Numbered from the stretch's first letter, positions 33,070 through 42,443 are shown. The stretch is 64,000 nt of DNA from an uncultured Acidobacteriota bacterium (GCA_963741955.1 CAVUKB010000010.1:64001-128000); one strand, 5' to 3'. Notes: a model not told the origin generated them from the letters alone. Program-made: numbers and translations.

Positions 33070-33537
33070 ATGGCTTCGAAAGTTTTTGTTGGGAATTTGA
33101 ATTTCAGCACCACGCGCGACGAGCTCGAGCGAATCTTCGGTGAGATCGGTCAGGTTACGGAGGTTTTCCTCCCGATGGACCGTGAAACCGGTCGTCCCCG
33201 CGGATTTGCCTTCGTGCAGTTCTCTTCGGACGAAGACGCGAAGAAGGCGATCGAGCAGCTCAACGGGCGTGAGGTCGGCGGCCGCGCGCTCCGAGTCAAC
33301 GCGGCGGAAGATCGCCCGCGGAGAAGCGGACCCTCTCCACGCCCCGGTGGATTCGGCGCGCGTCCCTTCGGCGGCGGCGGTGGCGGTGGTGGATTCGACC
33401 GCTCCCCGGATGAAGGATTCGGCGGCGGATTCGGTGGCGGATTCGGCGGCGGCGGCGGCGGCCGAGGTGGTGACGCTGGCGGCGGCCGTACCAAAGGAAG
33501 CCGTAGGAACATCCGGAAGAAGAAGCGCAGCCTCTGA
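33070..33537 (+). CDS. RRM RNA-binding protein with Gly-rich tail
   Basis: RNP2 VFVGNL and RNP1 RGFAFVQF; GGF repeats; basic C-terminus; AGGAG RBS. Confidence 0.93.
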   Translation: MASKVFVGNLNFSTTRDELERIFGEIGQVTEVFLPMDRETGRPRGFAFVQFSSDEDAKKAIEQLNGREVGGRALRVNAAEDRPRRSGPSPRPGGFGARPFGGGGGGGGFDRSPDEGFGGGFGGGFGGGGGGRGGDAGGGRTKGSRRNIRKKKRSL

Positions 33538-36459: not shown

Positions 36460-36664
36460 CGAAGGGCGGGCTCTTCGTATTCGATTTCGGCCCGACCAGG
36501 TCTGTGGCCCGGCGCAGAAACGGCCGAGGCGCTTCGTTCCTGCGGTCCGGCCAGCCGCTGCGGCACGTTTCTTTCAGCGTCCCGGGGGAGCCGGTCGCGG
36601 ACTGGACAGCATCCGTTCGCACGAATAGCATCATCCAAACTCGATTCGCAGGAGAGAGGCATCC

Positions 36665-37753
36665 GTGCACGAGAATCCACTGAAGCTCAAGAAGATCCAT
36701 CACATCGAATTCTGGGCGGGGAACGCCCGCCAATCGTCCTTTTATTACCGGAAGGCCTTCGGCTTCTCGCAGCTGGCGTACGGCGGTCTGGAGACCGGGA
36801 ACCGGGAGATGGCTTCCTACGTTCTCGGCCAGGGGAAGGCGCGATTCGTCGTCTCGACGCCGCTCCGTTCCGATCACCCGGCAAGTGAGCACATCCGGAA
36901 GCACGGAGACGGTGTGAGAGACATCGCTCTGCAGGTCGAGGACGCCGATTTCGCGTTCGAGGAAGCAGTCCGCCGCGGAGCAGTCGCGGTGACCGAACCG
37001 CGCGATCTCACCGATGACCACGGGACGGTCCGTCACGCTGCCATTCAGACGTACGGCGACACCATTCACTCGTTCATCTCGTACAAGGACTACGACGGTC
37101 CTTTTCTACCCGGCTACGGCGCCGCCGCGATCGAGGGCCACGACGTCGGCATCGTGACGATCGATCACATCGTGGGTAACGTCGAGCTCGGCAAGATGAA
37201 CGAGTGGGCGGAGTTCTACTCCAGGGTGATGGGTTTTTCGCGTTACATCACGTTCGACGACAAGGACATCTCCACCGAGTACAGTGCACTGATGAGCATC
37301 GTGATGTCCGACGACTCGAAGGTGGTGAAGTTTCCGATCAACGAGCCTGCTCCCGGGAAGAAGAAGAGTCAGATCGACGAGTACCTCGATGCGTACGGTG
37401 GGCCGGGCGTCCAACACATCGCTCTCCTCTGCCGCGACGTGATCGAGACGGTCAGCGCACTCGGCGAGAACGGCGTCGAATTCCTGCGCGTACCCGATGC
37501 CTATTACGAAGAGCTGCCCGAAAGGATCGGCGGAATCAGCGAGCCGCTCGACCGGATCCGGGCGCTCGGCGTTCTGGTCGACCGCGACGAAGAAGGATAT
37601 CTGCTCCAGATCTTCTCCCGGGCGGTCGAGGATCGTCCGACGGTTTTCTTCGAGATCATCCAGCGCAAGGGGAGTCGCGGGTTCGGTAAGGGCAACTTCA
37701 AGGCGCTCTTCCAGGCGATCGAGCTGGAGCAGGAGAAACGAGGGAATCTCTAG
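36665..37753 (+). CDS. hppD: 4-hydroxyphenylpyruvate dioxygenase
   Basis: [52 protein letters not shown]. Confidence 0.96.
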
Positions 37754-37932
37754 CCCGCATTTCTCACACCGTCTTGTCGTGAGGAGGCGCAGAGTGGCTT
37801 GGATGCAAGGCGCACCCCGCTTCGGCGACAAAGGCATAGTGGTGACTATGTCGAGGAGCCGAAGCCGGGCGCAACGCAGCAAACAGGCCGCTATCCGGCT
37901 CCGTAGCAGAGATGGTGTGAGAAAATGCGGGC
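37753..37932. mobile_element. About 180-bp palindromic MITE-like element
   Basis: Terminal inverted repeats GCCCGCATTTCTCACACCGTCT (37753-37774) and AGATGGTGTGAGAAAATGCGGGC (37910-37932); nested internal stems GCTTCGGC/GCCGAAGC and CATAGT/ACTATG. Confidence 0.75.
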
Positions 37933-38069
37933 CAGGAGTCTGCGCGATGGAAACGAGGAGCAAAATCGTCGTCTGACGCCGCAGACCGGCCCGGATCGCG
38001 CTCCGCAGCAGAAGTCCCGTGAATCGTCCGGGCCGACTCTGCATCAGGAGCGGGAAGGAAAGTGGAGAC

Positions 38070-39359
38070 ATGACCCTGCAGTACCAGTCCGGCTTCGGGA
38101 ACGAGCTTTCGACCACTGCGGTCGACGGAGCACTCCCGCTGGATCAGAATTCACCCCAGCGGGCGCCGCTCGGCCTCTATGCGGAACAGCTGAGCGGCAC
38201 GCCGTTCACCGCCCCGCGCCACCTGAACCGTCGCTCGTGGCTCTACCGCATCCGCCCTTCGGCCGTGCACCCTCCCTATACCCCCGTTCCGGAGGGCGCC
38301 TTTCCGGCTCGTTTCGACGAGATCGACGCTCCGCCGAATCAGCTTCGGTGGGATCCGCTTCCGCTTCCGGATGGGCCGGCCGACTTCCTCGACGGCCTCT
38401 TCACCATCTGCGGGAACGGCGATCCGGCGATGACGAGCGGGAGCGCGGTTCACGTGTACGCGGCGAACCGCTCCATGCAGGACCGCTGTTTCTACGATGC
38501 CGACGGCGAGCTGCTGATCGTGCCGCAGCTCGGAGCGGTCCGTCTCTTCACCGAGCTCGGTATTCTGGAGATCGCACCGGGAGAGATCGCTCTCGTTCCT
38601 CGGGGGATCAAGTTCCGCGTCGAGCTGCTCGAGCAGGCCGCACGCGGCTACGTCTGCGAGAATTTCGGACAGCTCTTCCGCCTCCCGGATCTCGGACCGA
38701 TCGGCGCGAACGGCCTGGCCGATCCGCGTCACTTCCAGGCGCCGGTCGCGGCATTCGAGGACCGCGACGGACCGTTCGAGGTCGTGGCGAAGTTTCTCGG
38801 GAAGCTCTGGAGATCGGAGTACGATCACTCGCCTCTCGATGTCGTCTCGTGGCACGGGAGCTACGTTCCGTACAAGTACGATCTCGCGCGATTCAACGCG
38901 ATCAACACTGCTTCGTTCGACCATCCCGATCCGTCCATTTTCACGGTCCTCACGTCCCCCTCGGAGATCCCCGGCACCGCGAACGTCGACTTCGTGATCT
39001 TCCCCCCGCGGTGGCTCGTGGCGGAGCACACTTTCCGCCCTCCCTACTTCCATCGGAACTTCATGAACGAGTACATGGGGCTGGTTTTTGGCGAGTACGA
39101 CGCGAAGTCGGAGGGGTTCGTTCCGGGAGGGGCCAGTCTTCACAATTGCATGTCGGGTCACGGCCCCGATGCGGCCACATTCGACGCGGCTTCCACGGCG
39201 AAGCTGCAGCCGAGCCTCCTCAGTGGTACGCTTGCATTCATGTTCGAGTCGCGCTTCGTCTTTCGTCCGACGAAGTTCGCGATGGAAACGCCGCTCCTGC
39301 AGCGCGACTACTACCGCTGTTGGGAGGGGCTCGGGAAACACTTCGGAACGCGAGAATAG
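38070..39359 (+). CDS. hmgA: Homogentisate 1,2-dioxygenase
   Basis: [69 protein letters not shown]. Confidence 0.96.
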
Positions 39360-39497
39360 AACCGCGACCGGCCGCGCAGACGGCCGCCAACCGGACGAAA
39401 TCGCGAATCAATTCGAACCGGACCGGCACCGGTCAACAGGATCGGTCATCCCGCCGCTCCCGCCTTCGGGCGGTGCGGAGGGTCGAAAGAAGAGCAG

Positions 39498-40388
39498 ATG
39501 AAACAGATACTGGATACGCTCATCGACCGCCTCATCGATTACGCGGGAATCTTCCCTCCGGCGAAGCTCCCGATGGACCAGGCGGTCCGCAACTACGCGA
39601 ACTACGCTCGCGGCGGGTGTGCTCCCGCCCTGGGACGATTCGTCGTTCCCGTCGCACGCCTGGGGGAGTTCGAGAGCGCAGCCCGCGGTCTGCACAAACC
39701 GGAGGAAGCGGCGTGGCCGATTGCGGTTCTCACCGGTCCGAAGCTCGATGACGACGTCTCGGCCATTGCGGAGTGGAACGTCCGATTCGCCGGCCGAGCG
39801 GTGATCGATACCATCGAAGCGAAGGTGACCGACGGACGCGAGATCGAGCTCATCGCGCGTCTGGTCTCTCCTGCACAGACCGCATACCTCGAAGTCCTGC
39901 TGCAGAACGATCTGGAGAAGACCATCGACGCACTCGCGAAGGCCGGCGTCCGCGCAAAGGTGCGTACGGGCGGTGTCACCGAAGAGGTGTTCCCTTCTGC
40001 CCTGCAGCTGGCCGAGTTCGTCACCCTCTGTGCGGCGAAGAACGTCCCCTTCAAAGCGACCGCGGGACTCCACCATCCGCTCCGCTGCACGAAGCCTCTG
40101 ACGTATGAACCGGGGAGCCGAAGCGCGACGATGCACGGGTTCGTGAACCTGTTCGTCGCGGCGGCACTGGCTCGGAAAGGAATGACCGTCGACGAAGCGG
40201 AGGCGCTTCTGGAGGAACGGGATCCTGGCGCCTTCCGGATCGAGGAGAGCTCGCTCTCGTGGCGTGACCACACCTTGCAGAACGATGAGCTCGCGGCCAG
40301 TCGAAACGAATTCGCGATCTCGTTCGGCTCCTGTTCTTTCGACGAGCCGATGAACGAGATTCGCCAGCTCTGGGACGGCGAGGCGTGA
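39498..40388 (+). CDS. Conserved-looking hypothetical enzyme between hmgA and fahA
   Basis: 296 aa; LIDYAGIFPPA, AKVRTGG, FKATAGLHHPLR, HGFVN, SFGSCSFDEP; co-oriented within the cluster. Confidence 0.85.
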   Translation: MKQILDTLIDRLIDYAGIFPPAKLPMDQAVRNYANYARGGCAPALGRFVVPVARLGEFESAARGLHKPEEAAWPIAVLTGPKLDDDVSAIAEWNVRFAGRAVIDTIEAKVTDGREIELIARLVSPAQTAYLEVLLQNDLEKTIDALAKAGVRAKVRTGGVTEEVFPSALQLAEFVTLCAAKNVPFKATAGLHHPLRCTKPLTYEPGSRSATMHGFVNLFVAAALARKGMTVDEAEALLEERDPGAFRIEESSLSWRDHTLQNDELAASRNEFAISFGSCSFDEPMNEIRQLWDGEA

Positions 40389-40427
40389 GCTGACGGGAGC
40401 GATCGCCAAGGAGAAGAACAGGGAACG

Positions 40428-41726
40428 ATGACCGATGAAACTCATGACCTGGCCCTTCGGAGTTGGGTCGAGTCCGCCAACGATCCGGCCACCGATTTTC
40501 CGCTCCAGAATCTCCCTTTCGGGGTGTTCCGGCGTGAAGGCGAAGAGCCGCGCGTCGGCATGGCAATCGGCGACCGCATTCTCGACCTCGGCGCGTCCGT
40601 CGATGCGGGCCTGCTGAGAACATCCCTCGCTGCAGAGACGTTCGGTCAGCCTCGACTCAACGGGATCATGGCAGCAGGTCGGACCGTCGCACGCGAGCTC
40701 CGGGCCGCGGCCCGCAACATCCTGCTCGAAAGTTTCGATCGGAGAGCGGAGGTGGAGCGCTGTCTCGTGCCCCAGGCGGAGGCATCTCTGCTGCTGCCGG
40801 CGGTGATCGGTGACTACACCGATTTCTACGCCTCCATCCACCACGCCACCAATGTCGGGAGCATGTTTCGTCCCGACAATCCGCTGCTGCCGAATTACAA
40901 ATGGGTTCCGATCGGCTACCACGGACGTGCTTCGTCGATCGTGGTCAGCGGAACGCCGTTCCGACGTCCTGCAGGACAGCTGAAGGATCCAGAGGGAGCG
41001 CCGAGGTTCGAAGCCTGCCGGAGACTCGACTACGAGACCGAGGTCGGCCTCTTCGTCGCGGGGGGGAACGAGCTCGGAGTGCCGGTGCGGATCGGCGACG
41101 CAGAAGAGCACATCTTCGGACTCTGTCTGGTGAACGACTGGTCTGCGCGCGACATTCAGACGTGGGAGTACCAGCCGCTCGGACCATTTCTGGGCAAGAG
41201 CTTCACCACATCCATCTCTCCGTGGGTGGTGACGCTCGATGCCCTCGAGCCCTTCCGCGTGCCGGCGTTCGAGCGCTCCGCTGCAGACCCGGCCCCGCTG
41301 CCGTATCTCACCTCGGACCGGGATCGCCGCCTGGGCGGCATCGACCTGACGCTCGAGGTGTGGATCGAATCGCAGAAGATGCGCGACGCCGGGATCGCTC
41401 CACTCCGGCTCAGTCGAGGGTCCTTCCGCGACATGTACTGGACCGTCGCTCAGCTCCTCGCACACCACACCAGCAACGGCTGCAACCTGCAGCCGGGAGA
41501 TCTTCTCGCGAGCGGAACGGTTTCCGGAACGACGAAAGATTCGAGGGGAAGTCTGCTCGAGCTGGCGTGGAAGGGGACCGAGCCCATCGAGCTCCCGACG
41601 GGAGAACAGCGGCGCTTTCTGGAAGATGGAGACGAAGTGATCATGCGCGGCTGGTGCGAGCGCGAAGGCTTCCGCCGGATCGGATTCGGTGAATGCCGCG
41701 GTCGCGTGCTTCCCGCCGTCGGGTGA
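40428..41726 (+). CDS. fahA: Fumarylacetoacetase
   Basis: DFPLQNLPFG, GDYTDFYASIHHATNVG, YHGRASS, LDYETE, NDWSARDIQ.WEYQPLGPFLGKSF, GDLLASGT. Confidence 0.96.
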   Translation: MTDETHDLALRSWVESANDPATDFPLQNLPFGVFRREGEEPRVGMAIGDRILDLGASVDAGLLRTSLAAETFGQPRLNGIMAAGRTVARELRAAARNILLESFDRRAEVERCLVPQAEASLLLPAVIGDYTDFYASIHHATNVGSMFRPDNPLLPNYKWVPIGYHGRASSIVVSGTPFRRPAGQLKDPEGAPRFEACRRLDYETEVGLFVAGGNELGVPVRIGDAEEHIFGLCLVNDWSARDIQTWEYQPLGPFLGKSFTTSISPWVVTLDALEPFRVPAFERSAADPAPLPYLTSDRDRRLGGIDLTLEVWIESQKMRDAGIAPLRLSRGSFRDMYWTVAQLLAHHTSNGCNLQPGDLLASGTVSGTTKDSRGSLLELAWKGTEPIELPTGEQRRFLEDGDEVIMRGWCEREGFRRIGFGECRGRVLPAVG

Positions 41727-41765: not shown

Positions 41766-41799
41766 AAAAAGGCTCGAGGGGAACCCCTCGAGCCTTTTC
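41766..41799. terminator. Bidirectional intrinsic terminator
   Basis: AAAAGGCTCGAGGGG-AA-CCCCTCGAGCCTTTT between convergent fahA and 41802..42443. Confidence 0.85.
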
Positions 41800-41801
41800 G
41801 T

Positions 41802-42443
41802 TCACCTCAGCCGCTCTTCTCGTTCGTCTTCGATGCGTCTTTCGCGCGCACGCTCGCGGTCGATCTCGCGCTCGCTCAGGCCCGCGACCGGCCGCTCGAC
41901 GTCCGCCGGACGGCTGACCAGCCGGTCGAAGAGCTCGCGGTAATGAATCATCGACTGGCGAAGATCTTCGGTCGTGACCTGACCTTGCGCATGTGCCTCG
42001 ATCGCCCGATGAGCATCGCGATAATGCTCGACGAGCTCCGGTTCCTTGACCGAGAGATCCGAGGCGCGCTTTTCGAAGCTTCCGACCGGGTACCCGCGGA
42101 CGCTGAGGATCTCTCCGATCAGTTCGTCCGCCTGTGCCACTGCCGTGGTCGGGCGGTCGACGAATTCGCGCTCGATCCGCTCCCAGTCGCTCGAGAAGCG
42201 ACTGCGCTCTTCCGCTCTGAGAGGCCGGATTCGGAGTGAGCCTTCGCGGGCTTCACGCGCTGCGAGCTCACTTTCCGCACGGCTGCGGCTGCGAGTCGAT
42301 GAGACTGCGTGGTCGTACTCCGAACCGAAGCGTTCGCGCAGGTGCGAGCTGCGGCGGGACCGCGACGCGCCGACGAAAATGCCGACCACGATGAGTAATG
42401 CCACTGCTCCGAGTGCTACCCAGATCCAATACGGAGCCATCAT
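41802..42443 (-). CDS. Hypothetical membrane-anchored helical protein
   Basis: N-terminal TM helix; LRERFGSEYD, FVDRP..AV..AD, RGYP, TEDLRQSMIHYRELF; AAAGGAGA RBS. Confidence 0.8.
   Translation of the reverse strand: MMAPYWIWVALGAVALLIVVGIFVGASRSRRSSHLRERFGSEYDHAVSSTRSRSRAESELAAREAREGSLRIRPLRAEERSRFSSDWERIEREFVDRPTTAVAQADELIGEILSVRGYPVGSFEKRASDLSVKEPELVEHYRDAHRAIEAHAQGQVTTEDLRQSMIHYRELFDRLVSRPADVERPVAGLSEREIDRERARERRIEDEREERLR

Follow-up and report, generated by a model that had tools for sequence, protein, structure and literature searches.

A 64,000-nucleotide stretch of DNA from an uncultured Acidobacteriota bacterium (GCA_963741955.1 CAVUKB010000010.1:64001-128000; called the window in what follows, coordinates being counted within it) contains a homogentisate operon in which a gene for a 296-residue protein lies between hmgA and fahA. 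We propose that this protein is probably the maleylacetoacetate cis-trans isomerase of the operon, and one that is not a glutathione S-transferase (GST). The proposal follows from the arrangement of hppD, hmgA, the 296-residue open reading frame (ORF) and fahA in the order of the reactions, closed by a terminator. It also follows from the genome itself: as it carries no maiA, MDMPI_N, gshA or gshB, an isomerase of another kind would be needed. From gene order, family size, predicted fold, linkage, co-occurrence, fusions and conservation, all of them observed, we infer the substrate and the reaction.

In the proposed scheme HmgA would open homogentisate to maleylacetoacetate, the 296-residue enzyme would turn the cis C2=C3 bond trans, and FahA would cleave the resulting fumarylacetoacetate to fumarate and acetoacetate. 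The protein would do the job that the zeta-class GST (MaiA/HmgC/GSTZ1) does in proteobacteria and eukaryotes. An earlier sequence-only reading of the locus had suggested a thiol-cofactor-independent isomerase, or else a hydrolase, of an undescribed family with a barrel fold. The undescribed family, the TIM barrel and a tight and wide linkage to fahA have held up; independence from a thiol cofactor is the part that did not gain support, and the activity itself is read from context.

The genome behind the window comprises 5.44 Mb in 16 contigs and is 99.1% complete. At E<=0.001 it contains no match to TIGR01262 (maiA) or to PF11716 (MDMPI_N), the domain of mycothiol-dependent maleylpyruvate isomerase (MDMPI), so that an absence first noticed for the window extends to the whole genome. 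The sequencing runs listed are DNA runs from soil metagenomes, all of a single study, with no RNA among them. Neither gshB (TIGR01380) nor an E. coli-type gshA (PF04262) was found in it, and a glutathione-dependent isomerase would therefore have no cofactor here.

An unnamed family paired with fumarylacetoacetase

In Pfam and NCBIfam scans the 296-residue protein has no match at E<=0.1 except a chance hit of 13.6 bits to T2SSK. These scans gave no match to any GST family, PF11716, PF01557, PF01791, TIGR00126 or the Asp/Glu racemase superfamily (PF01557 and the racemase superfamily by Pfam). Sequence searches of the Protein Data Bank (PDB), both with the single sequence and with a profile, returned chance matches only, with E-values of at least 0.18. 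The family is nevertheless large: among 1.84 billion cluster representatives, searched exhaustively, 4824 are relatives at E<=0.001 and 1506 at E<=1e-30, and in a word-indexed search 7941 of 8000 candidates scored as relatives. True to the claim of an undescribed family, these relatives go unnamed. Among the 120 listed, those with a name are called 'hypothetical protein' apart from one 'nitroreductase'. The Protein Atlas yielded nothing of use when limited to named clusters; without that limit, it lists nothing but unnamed relatives and a single cluster with the automatic label 'Transaldolase family protein'. A full-text literature search, made without most subscription journals, found no paper on the family or on a maleylacetoacetate isomerase other than a GST. 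Glutathione-independent maleylacetoacetate isomerase of Gram-positive bacteria is reportedly the subject of a J. Bacteriol. note of 1985.

Is the arrangement of the window kept in other bacteria? A scan of one genome per prokaryotic species gave at least 596 loci, of which the best 80 were analysed by tblastn with the window proteins. By their record titles and our own assignment of families to phyla, these belong to Acidobacteriota, Gemmatimonadota, Bacteroidota including Ignavibacteria, Planctomycetota, Chloroflexota, Cyanobacteriota and Latescibacteria. In 64 of the 80 loci fahA lies downstream on the same strand at a distance of at most 300 bp (median gap 27 bp), and in 10 further loci it follows on the same strand within 3.1 kb; it is absent in four, and two loci end before a neighbour becomes visible. 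A gene for HmgA with at least 50% identity is present in 25 loci and a divergent HmgA-like cupin in six more. When the 702 flanking ORFs were clustered, no other neighbour occurred in more than eight loci, and the conserved unit is therefore a pair: a gene of the family, then fahA. Recurrent neighbours beyond the pathway genes are lineage-specific housekeeping genes (RNase III, RuvC, PurF-like, TPR) and, in four loci, phenylalanine hydroxylase. Homologues without linkage to hmgA or fahA, which the sequence-only reading would have taken as evidence against itself, were not the outcome: fahA is linked widely and hmgA often.

Some variations on this theme were seen along the way. The HmgA-like cupin, of ~390 residues, replaces canonical hmgA in many clusters (L103:3745-4941; upstream of the family gene in L032, L043, L046, L058, L062 and L079). 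It shows a partial HgmA_N match only and 23-27% identity to the HmgA of the window, and in several genomes of the organism's own phylum a similar cupin stands beside a short FAH-like gene instead. Flavobacterial synteny (L143:2959-9834, L095:3386-8155) has a gene for an HU-like DNA-binding protein, the family member, a Por_Secre_tail protein gene and fahA, in this order. Where relatives lack the family, the place between the HU-like and Por_Secre_tail genes is taken by fahA, which suggests that the family gene was lost in some lineages.

A paralogue with 30% identity (L091:3421-5393) overlaps by four bases the start of a gene for a short-type FAH-family hydrolase (FAA_hydro_N_2 plus FAA_hydrolase, 327 residues), to which it is translationally coupled; the pair is preceded by a methyltransferase gene and followed by an ApbE gene. 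Short hydrolases of the FAH type also require a trans substrate, and this paralogue hints at a family that serves FAH-type hydrolases more generally.

Phyletic profiling carries the same pairing beyond gene neighbourhoods. The family profile, TIGR01266 (FahA) and TIGR01262 were run over evenly drawn samples, 563 genomes of three phyla in all (Table 1); these genomes are related to one another, and no P-values are attached to the counts. The negatives of the own-phylum sample include two unpublished genomes, G145 and G023, on which no positive claim rests.

Table 1. Genomes with the 296-residue family, with FahA, with both or with neither
Sample	Genomes	Both	Family only	FahA only	Neither
Own phylum	251	40	3	7	201
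Bacteroidota	201	36	1	39	125
Planctomycetota	111	5	0	0	106

The co-occurrence with fahA and hmgA that such profiling was meant to check is present: FahA is encoded in 81 of the 85 carriers of the family, and HgmA_N is matched in 39 of 43 own-phylum carriers and in four of five from Planctomycetota. One of the three own-phylum genomes with the family only has FahA split over two contigs. By our reading of the position tables, the two genes are adjacent in 33 of 40 own-phylum pairs and 22 of 36 in Bacteroidota. Six further Bacteroidota genomes have a gene for a secreted protein inserted between them, and the pair is unlinked in 8/36 Bacteroidota and 2/5 Planctomycetota.

Along the same lines, the family is found fused to enzymes of the pathway. 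Among 28 longer homologues, 16 consist of an N-terminal acetoacetyl-coenzyme A (CoA) synthetase followed by the family domain, three of the family domain followed by FahA (for example P0278, 771 residues) and two of an HmgA-like cupin followed by the family domain; P0278 comes from a contig of 248,154 bases, as long as the contig of genome G166 on which family and FahA matches lie within one open frame of 792 residues. Six others (545-617 residues, including P0271-P0274 and P0174) carry a CAAX-type (Rce1-like) membrane protease domain N-terminal to the family domain; no protease of this type was seen as a neighbour in the 80 genome loci. The remaining one (P0275) has an N-terminal part without a Pfam domain.

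A metagenome scan with the fused proteins was keyed on synthetase motifs, and 78 of its 80 loci contain stand-alone synthetases; the two informative contigs are L171 and L208. The first reads hppD, an hmgA-like gene, a synthetase-domain fusion and fahA. Because fahA still follows the domain there, the synthetase fusion reflects an operon order of synthetase, ORF and fahA. The second contains hppD, an hmgA-like gene, the family gene, fahA and an acetoacetyl-CoA synthetase gene, the full order of the reactions.

Fold, conserved residues and a possible mechanism

AlphaFold2, given a 60-sequence alignment, models the protein as alternating strands and helices (mean pLDDT 96.6, pTM 0.93). In a Foldseek comparison of this model with the PDB, the top ranks are held by deoxyribose-phosphate aldolases (DeoC; 7p76, 1ktn, 1jcj, 3ng3, 1ub3 and 5c5y), with E-values from ~2e-4 to 1e-3 and low TM-scores of 0.40-0.51 (0.43-0.51 for those at the top, with E ~2e-4), and the lower matches are other TIM barrels, namely IMP dehydrogenase, hydroxy-acid oxidases and transaldolase. 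The barrel that had been guessed from the alternating pattern is thus what the model and its structural matches give. On this prediction we regard the proteins as a TIM-barrel family in its own right, with class I aldolases as the closest relatives of solved structure. The top match, an engineered DeoC, carries out Michael additions via an iminium, which makes such chemistry feasible in this fold.

All five motifs picked out by the sequence-only reading (DYAGIFPPA, KVRTGG, FKATAGLHHP, HGFVN and SFGSCSFDEP) are present in the translation and fall on invariant or nearly invariant columns of the 60-sequence alignment, which include D14, K154, R156, G158, G159, K186, T188-H193, G214, G277 and C279. 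A second alignment of 58 sequences brought together core members, all fusion types, the 30%-identical paralogue and divergent flavobacterial copies. Invariant throughout are P21, E107, K154, K186, G214 and R269; D14, E132, N217 and W255 are kept in 57 of the 58. R156, H192, H193 and C279 are retained by every member that is linked or fused to fahA and are replaced in flavobacterial copies that have drifted from it (L145, L146, L150, L151) and in both copies of genome G442. In the model, the conserved charged residues and C279 lie within or just after the barrel strands, where the active sites of TIM barrels sit, except for R269, which is in a helix.

The divergent flavobacterial clade deserves a description of its own. 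It has ~22-24% identity (L145:4661-5635, L146:5035-6048, L150:4792-5766 and L151:4678-5694; also L147:4971-5966 and L148:4778-5767) and is no longer found beside fahA. K154, K186, E107 and R269 are kept, C279, H192 and R156 are lost, and H193 is also lost in three of four copies. FahA is still encoded in seven of eight genomes with such copies. This clade may have changed its function.

How far does the likeness to DeoC (1jcj, 7p76) go? It is the nearest solved fold. In an alignment that is itself non-significant, hhalign places K154 (strand 152-156 of the model) on DeoC K167, K186 (on the next strand, 185-188) on DeoC K201 and E132 on DeoC E141, the lysines within similar local motifs. Both DeoC lysines are invariant in a 22-sequence DeoC alignment; in DeoC, K167 is the Schiff-base lysine and K201 tunes it through a pKa shift. 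In contrast to DeoC, the 296-residue protein matches neither PF01791 nor TIGR00126, has extra hairpins as well as a set of His-His and Cys residues that DeoC lacks, and stands in a context of aromatic rather than nucleoside catabolism. The aldolase-like lysine pair can be taken as a lead only, for which lysines to mutate.

With this lead a mechanism can be sketched, each step of which we infer. Lys154 on the sixth strand would condense with the C4 ketone of maleylacetoacetate to an iminium, supported by Lys186 and Glu107 in the manner of the aldolase-like lysine pair. The iminium would activate C2 for the reversible addition of a thiolate, supplied either by the enzyme's own Cys279 or by a small thiol, for instance bacillithiol. 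Rotation about the C2-C3 bond and elimination of the thiolate would follow. Arg156, Arg269 and His192/His193 might hold the carboxylates and the diketone. To our knowledge, no cis-trans isomerase is known to combine a lysine iminium with a cysteine.

Part of this chemistry has a precedent in the maleate cis-trans isomerase of the Asp/Glu racemase superfamily, which works without a cofactor and employs a cysteine of its own as the nucleophile that adds, the role proposed here for Cys279. It differs in fold and substrate, and its superfamily is not matched by the 296-residue protein in Pfam. MDMPI, which is DinB-like, solves the same chemical problem without a GST in bacteria that lack glutathione; it has another fold, thiol and substrate, and this genome contains no PF11716 match. 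MaiA/HmgC/GSTZ1 (TIGR01262) shares with the 296-residue protein the proposed reaction and the place in pathway and operon between hmgA and fahA, but neither sequence nor fold, that of the GSTs being thioredoxin-like rather than a TIM barrel. According to an excerpt of PMC10950700, the zeta-class glutathione transferase requires glutathione, for which this genome lacks gshA and gshB, and is the only maleylacetoacetate isomerase described. The system would thus be a known pathway in which a non-homologous enzyme takes over one step: the protein fails every testable feature of the GST-zeta, MDMPI and FAH families and shares only a fold with DeoC.

Weighing the isomerase reading

Several observations weigh against an isomerase, or against the aldolase-like form of it sketched above. 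Of the 127 FahA-positive genomes, 46 carry neither the family nor maiA, and in three of the seven own-phylum genomes with FahA only, hmgA and fahA abut at a distance of 51-208 bp with no isomerase candidate in the cluster (L083:5997-8602, L084:4606-7208, L085:4832-7522). The step must accordingly be either dispensable in these 46 genomes or done by something else. One carrier of the family, G060, has no FAH-family match whatever, and two of the five carrier genomes reached through loci (G254 and G255) have no HgmA_N match. That the family never occurs with maiA is true but empty, and carries no weight here: maiA exceeds its cut-off in 1/251 own-phylum genomes, 0/201 Bacteroidota and 0/111 Planctomycetota, one of 563 in all, and is therefore nearly absent from these phyla whether the family is present or not. 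The lysine pair fares little better. Against E. coli DeoC hhalign gives E = 0.29, and against the 22-sequence DeoC alignment E = 0.064 with a probability of 0.9%, while an unrelated control protein scored E = 0.25, like DeoC. D104, which aligns to DeoC D102, is conserved in just 30 of the 58 sequences.

The sole genome with maiA, G078, is not among the 127 and has neither the 296-residue family nor a long-type FahA. It contains in a row (L089:101-5927) hmgA, a short-type FAH gene, genes for a metallo-beta-lactamase-fold protein and an FAD monooxygenase, and maiA. This single case is consistent with replacement. In Bacteroidota clusters without the family, a Flavin_Reduct protein of ~300 residues (PF01613, E 1e-16 to 1e-18 in the three scanned) is encoded directly after fahA in five of 20 loci (L103:6221-7132, L101:4120-5019, L104:6351-7274, L106:6804-7700, L113:4135-5046), and on one metagenome contig a flavin-reductase-like gene follows an hmgA-like gene (L159:9387-9881). 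Such a protein may be another occupant of the same slot in the pathway.

Could the protein act beside FahA in another way? It might be a keto-enol tautomerase, a Schiff-base enzyme working on the diketo acid, or a handler of the FahA products acetoacetate and fumarate before acetoacetyl-CoA synthetase. We consider this unlikely, even if the points in its favour are real ones. The synthetase, which acts two steps downstream, is the commonest fusion partner, and this also fits a role after FahA; both the fold and the two lysines are reminiscent of class I aldolases, enzymes with a chemistry suited to beta-keto acids; and a considerable number of FahA-positive genomes do without the family or maiA, as described above. 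However, the genes stand in the sequence of the reactions, and in 74 of the 80 loci the ORF precedes fahA. In L208 the ORF likewise precedes fahA and the synthetase comes after it, in L171 the fusion mirrors the operon order with fahA behind the domain, and fusions to the upstream HmgA-like dioxygenase exist too. An enzyme acting after FahA would be expected in maiA-bearing organisms as well, and we know of no such extra step in the homogentisate pathway.

A different view accepts the isomerase and makes it cofactor-dependent: the thiol that adds would be bacillithiol, N-methyl-bacillithiol, free cysteine or CoA, just as MaiA uses glutathione. The bacillithiol-using enzymes that we know of have other folds. 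The organism probably makes bacillithiol or a derivative, to judge from a bshA gene (520.5 bits, over the cut-off) and, at a distance of ~1 kb, a bshC-like gene whose 257.6 bits fall slightly short of the cut-off of 265.8 (G000:C7:421971-425484, outside the window). An excerpt of PMC6282198 has bacillithiol or its N-methyl form predicted in Acidobacteria, Bacteroidetes and Gemmatimonadetes and glutathione genes confined to Cyanobacteria, Proteobacteria, Eukarya and one actinobacterium. By record title, the phyla with predicted bacillithiol are those in which the 296-residue family is common. However, members of the family are found in Planctomycetota, Chloroflexota and a cyanobacterium too, and Cys279, invariant in the fahA-linked clade, could itself be the thiol. 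Taken together, we hold this sub-case of the isomerase to be rather improbable. A bacillithiol-using enzyme would nonetheless fit the bshA and bshC-like genes, so that the independence from thiol cofactors which the earlier reading had claimed is at most a possibility.

A non-catalytic partner, scaffold or regulator of FahA would account for the tight pairing with fahA and the occasional fusion to it. It is very unlikely in view of the near-invariance of D14, E107, E132, K154, R156, K186, H192, H193 and C279, which form an active-site pattern in or after the strands, and of the unlinked pairs in Planctomycetota and Bacteroidota. A predicted complex of FahA with the 296-residue protein scored 0.23 against a mark of 0.32 and counts neither way. 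Least credible of all is the hydrolase named by the earlier reading, which would act on maleylacetoacetate and bypass isomerisation: nothing beyond its place in the cluster speaks for it, a second hydrolase would be superfluous next to the canonical fahA that adjoins the gene in the window as in most loci, and the protein matches no FAH-family or other hydrolase family. Two further candidates were rejected, a chance ORF by the conservation of the family, its fold and its 4824 relatives, and a GST in disguise by the lack of any GST-family match and by the beta/alpha barrel of the model.

The non-GST isomerase therefore stays our preferred reading. A bolder version of it would have a cofactor-free isomerase join a lysine iminium and an enzyme cysteine in a DeoC-like barrel, serve the main tyrosine and phenylalanine route in glutathione-lacking bacteria of many phyla, and be a general maleyl-to-fumaryl partner of FAH-type hydrolases. 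This we put forward tentatively, as a possible but doubtful extension.

The operon and what it may mean for the pathway

The four genes are co-oriented, as had been noted before, and the three named ones score far above their curated cut-offs (Table 2); the HmgA product also matches the Pfam domains HgmA_N (1e-123) and HgmA_C (6.8e-77). Only 39 bp separate the stop codon of the 296-residue ORF from the start of fahA. The strong terminator described by the sequence-only reading proves real by folding: a GC-rich hairpin at ~41771-41794, ~45 bp past the fahA stop and flanked by an A-run and a T-run, folds with -31 kcal/mol (z = -5.98), and none of 200 shuffles is equally stable. A simple consensus scan for terminators did not list this hairpin, though folding supports it. 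The promoter candidate, in turn, is at chance level; it is the sole site found, shuffles average 0.9 sites, and it falls in the 205-bp gap that follows a UbiE-type methyltransferase gene unrelated to the pathway.

Table 2. Features of the homogentisate operon and its ends, in window coordinates
Feature	Coordinates	Strand	Remarks
Sigma-70-like promoter candidate, weak	36603..36631	+	Upstream of hppD; TGGACA, 17-nt spacer, TAGCAT; 9/12 matches
hppD, 4-hydroxyphenylpyruvate dioxygenase, 362 aa	36665..37753	+	TIGR01263, 3e-136, 454.5 bits, cut-off 277; glyoxalase and HPPD_N domains
hmgA, homogentisate 1,2-dioxygenase, 446 aa	38019..39359	+	TIGR01015, 6.1e-203, 674 bits, cut-off 510.75
296-aa protein, unnamed TIM-barrel family (predicted), candidate maleylacetoacetate isomerase	39498..40388	+	No Pfam, NCBIfam or PDB sequence match
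fahA, fumarylacetoacetase, 432 aa	40428..41726	+	TIGR01266, 1.7e-166, 554 bits, cut-off 375.3; FAA_hydrolase_N and FAA_hydrolase domains
Intrinsic terminator hairpin	41766..41802	.	A-run, GC stem, T-run; shared with convergent gene 41802-42443

The flanks are unrelated to the pathway, with the methyltransferase gene upstream and, downstream, the convergent gene, which has no family match, followed by msrA and msrB. Further upstream, window positions 33070-33537 encode an RNA-binding protein of 155 residues with an RRM domain (PF00076, 4.2e-26) and a long glycine-rich tail, just upstream of a gene on the opposite strand for an MscS-type channel of 588 residues.

What would an isomerase of this kind mean? 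The homogentisate pathway is textbook metabolism, yet for its isomerase step no enzyme other than a glutathione transferase is known. Among the 563 genomes of three phyla, 127 encode fumarylacetoacetase and a single one, outside these 127, encodes maiA, which leaves a hole in the pathway of most of these bacteria. If our reading is true, a family of several thousand clusters would fill this hole in about two thirds of the FahA-positive genomes, automated pathway reconstructions for soil and aquatic phyla would be corrected, and a large unnamed family would gain a name and a function. It might also reveal a new way of isomerising a conjugated double bond.

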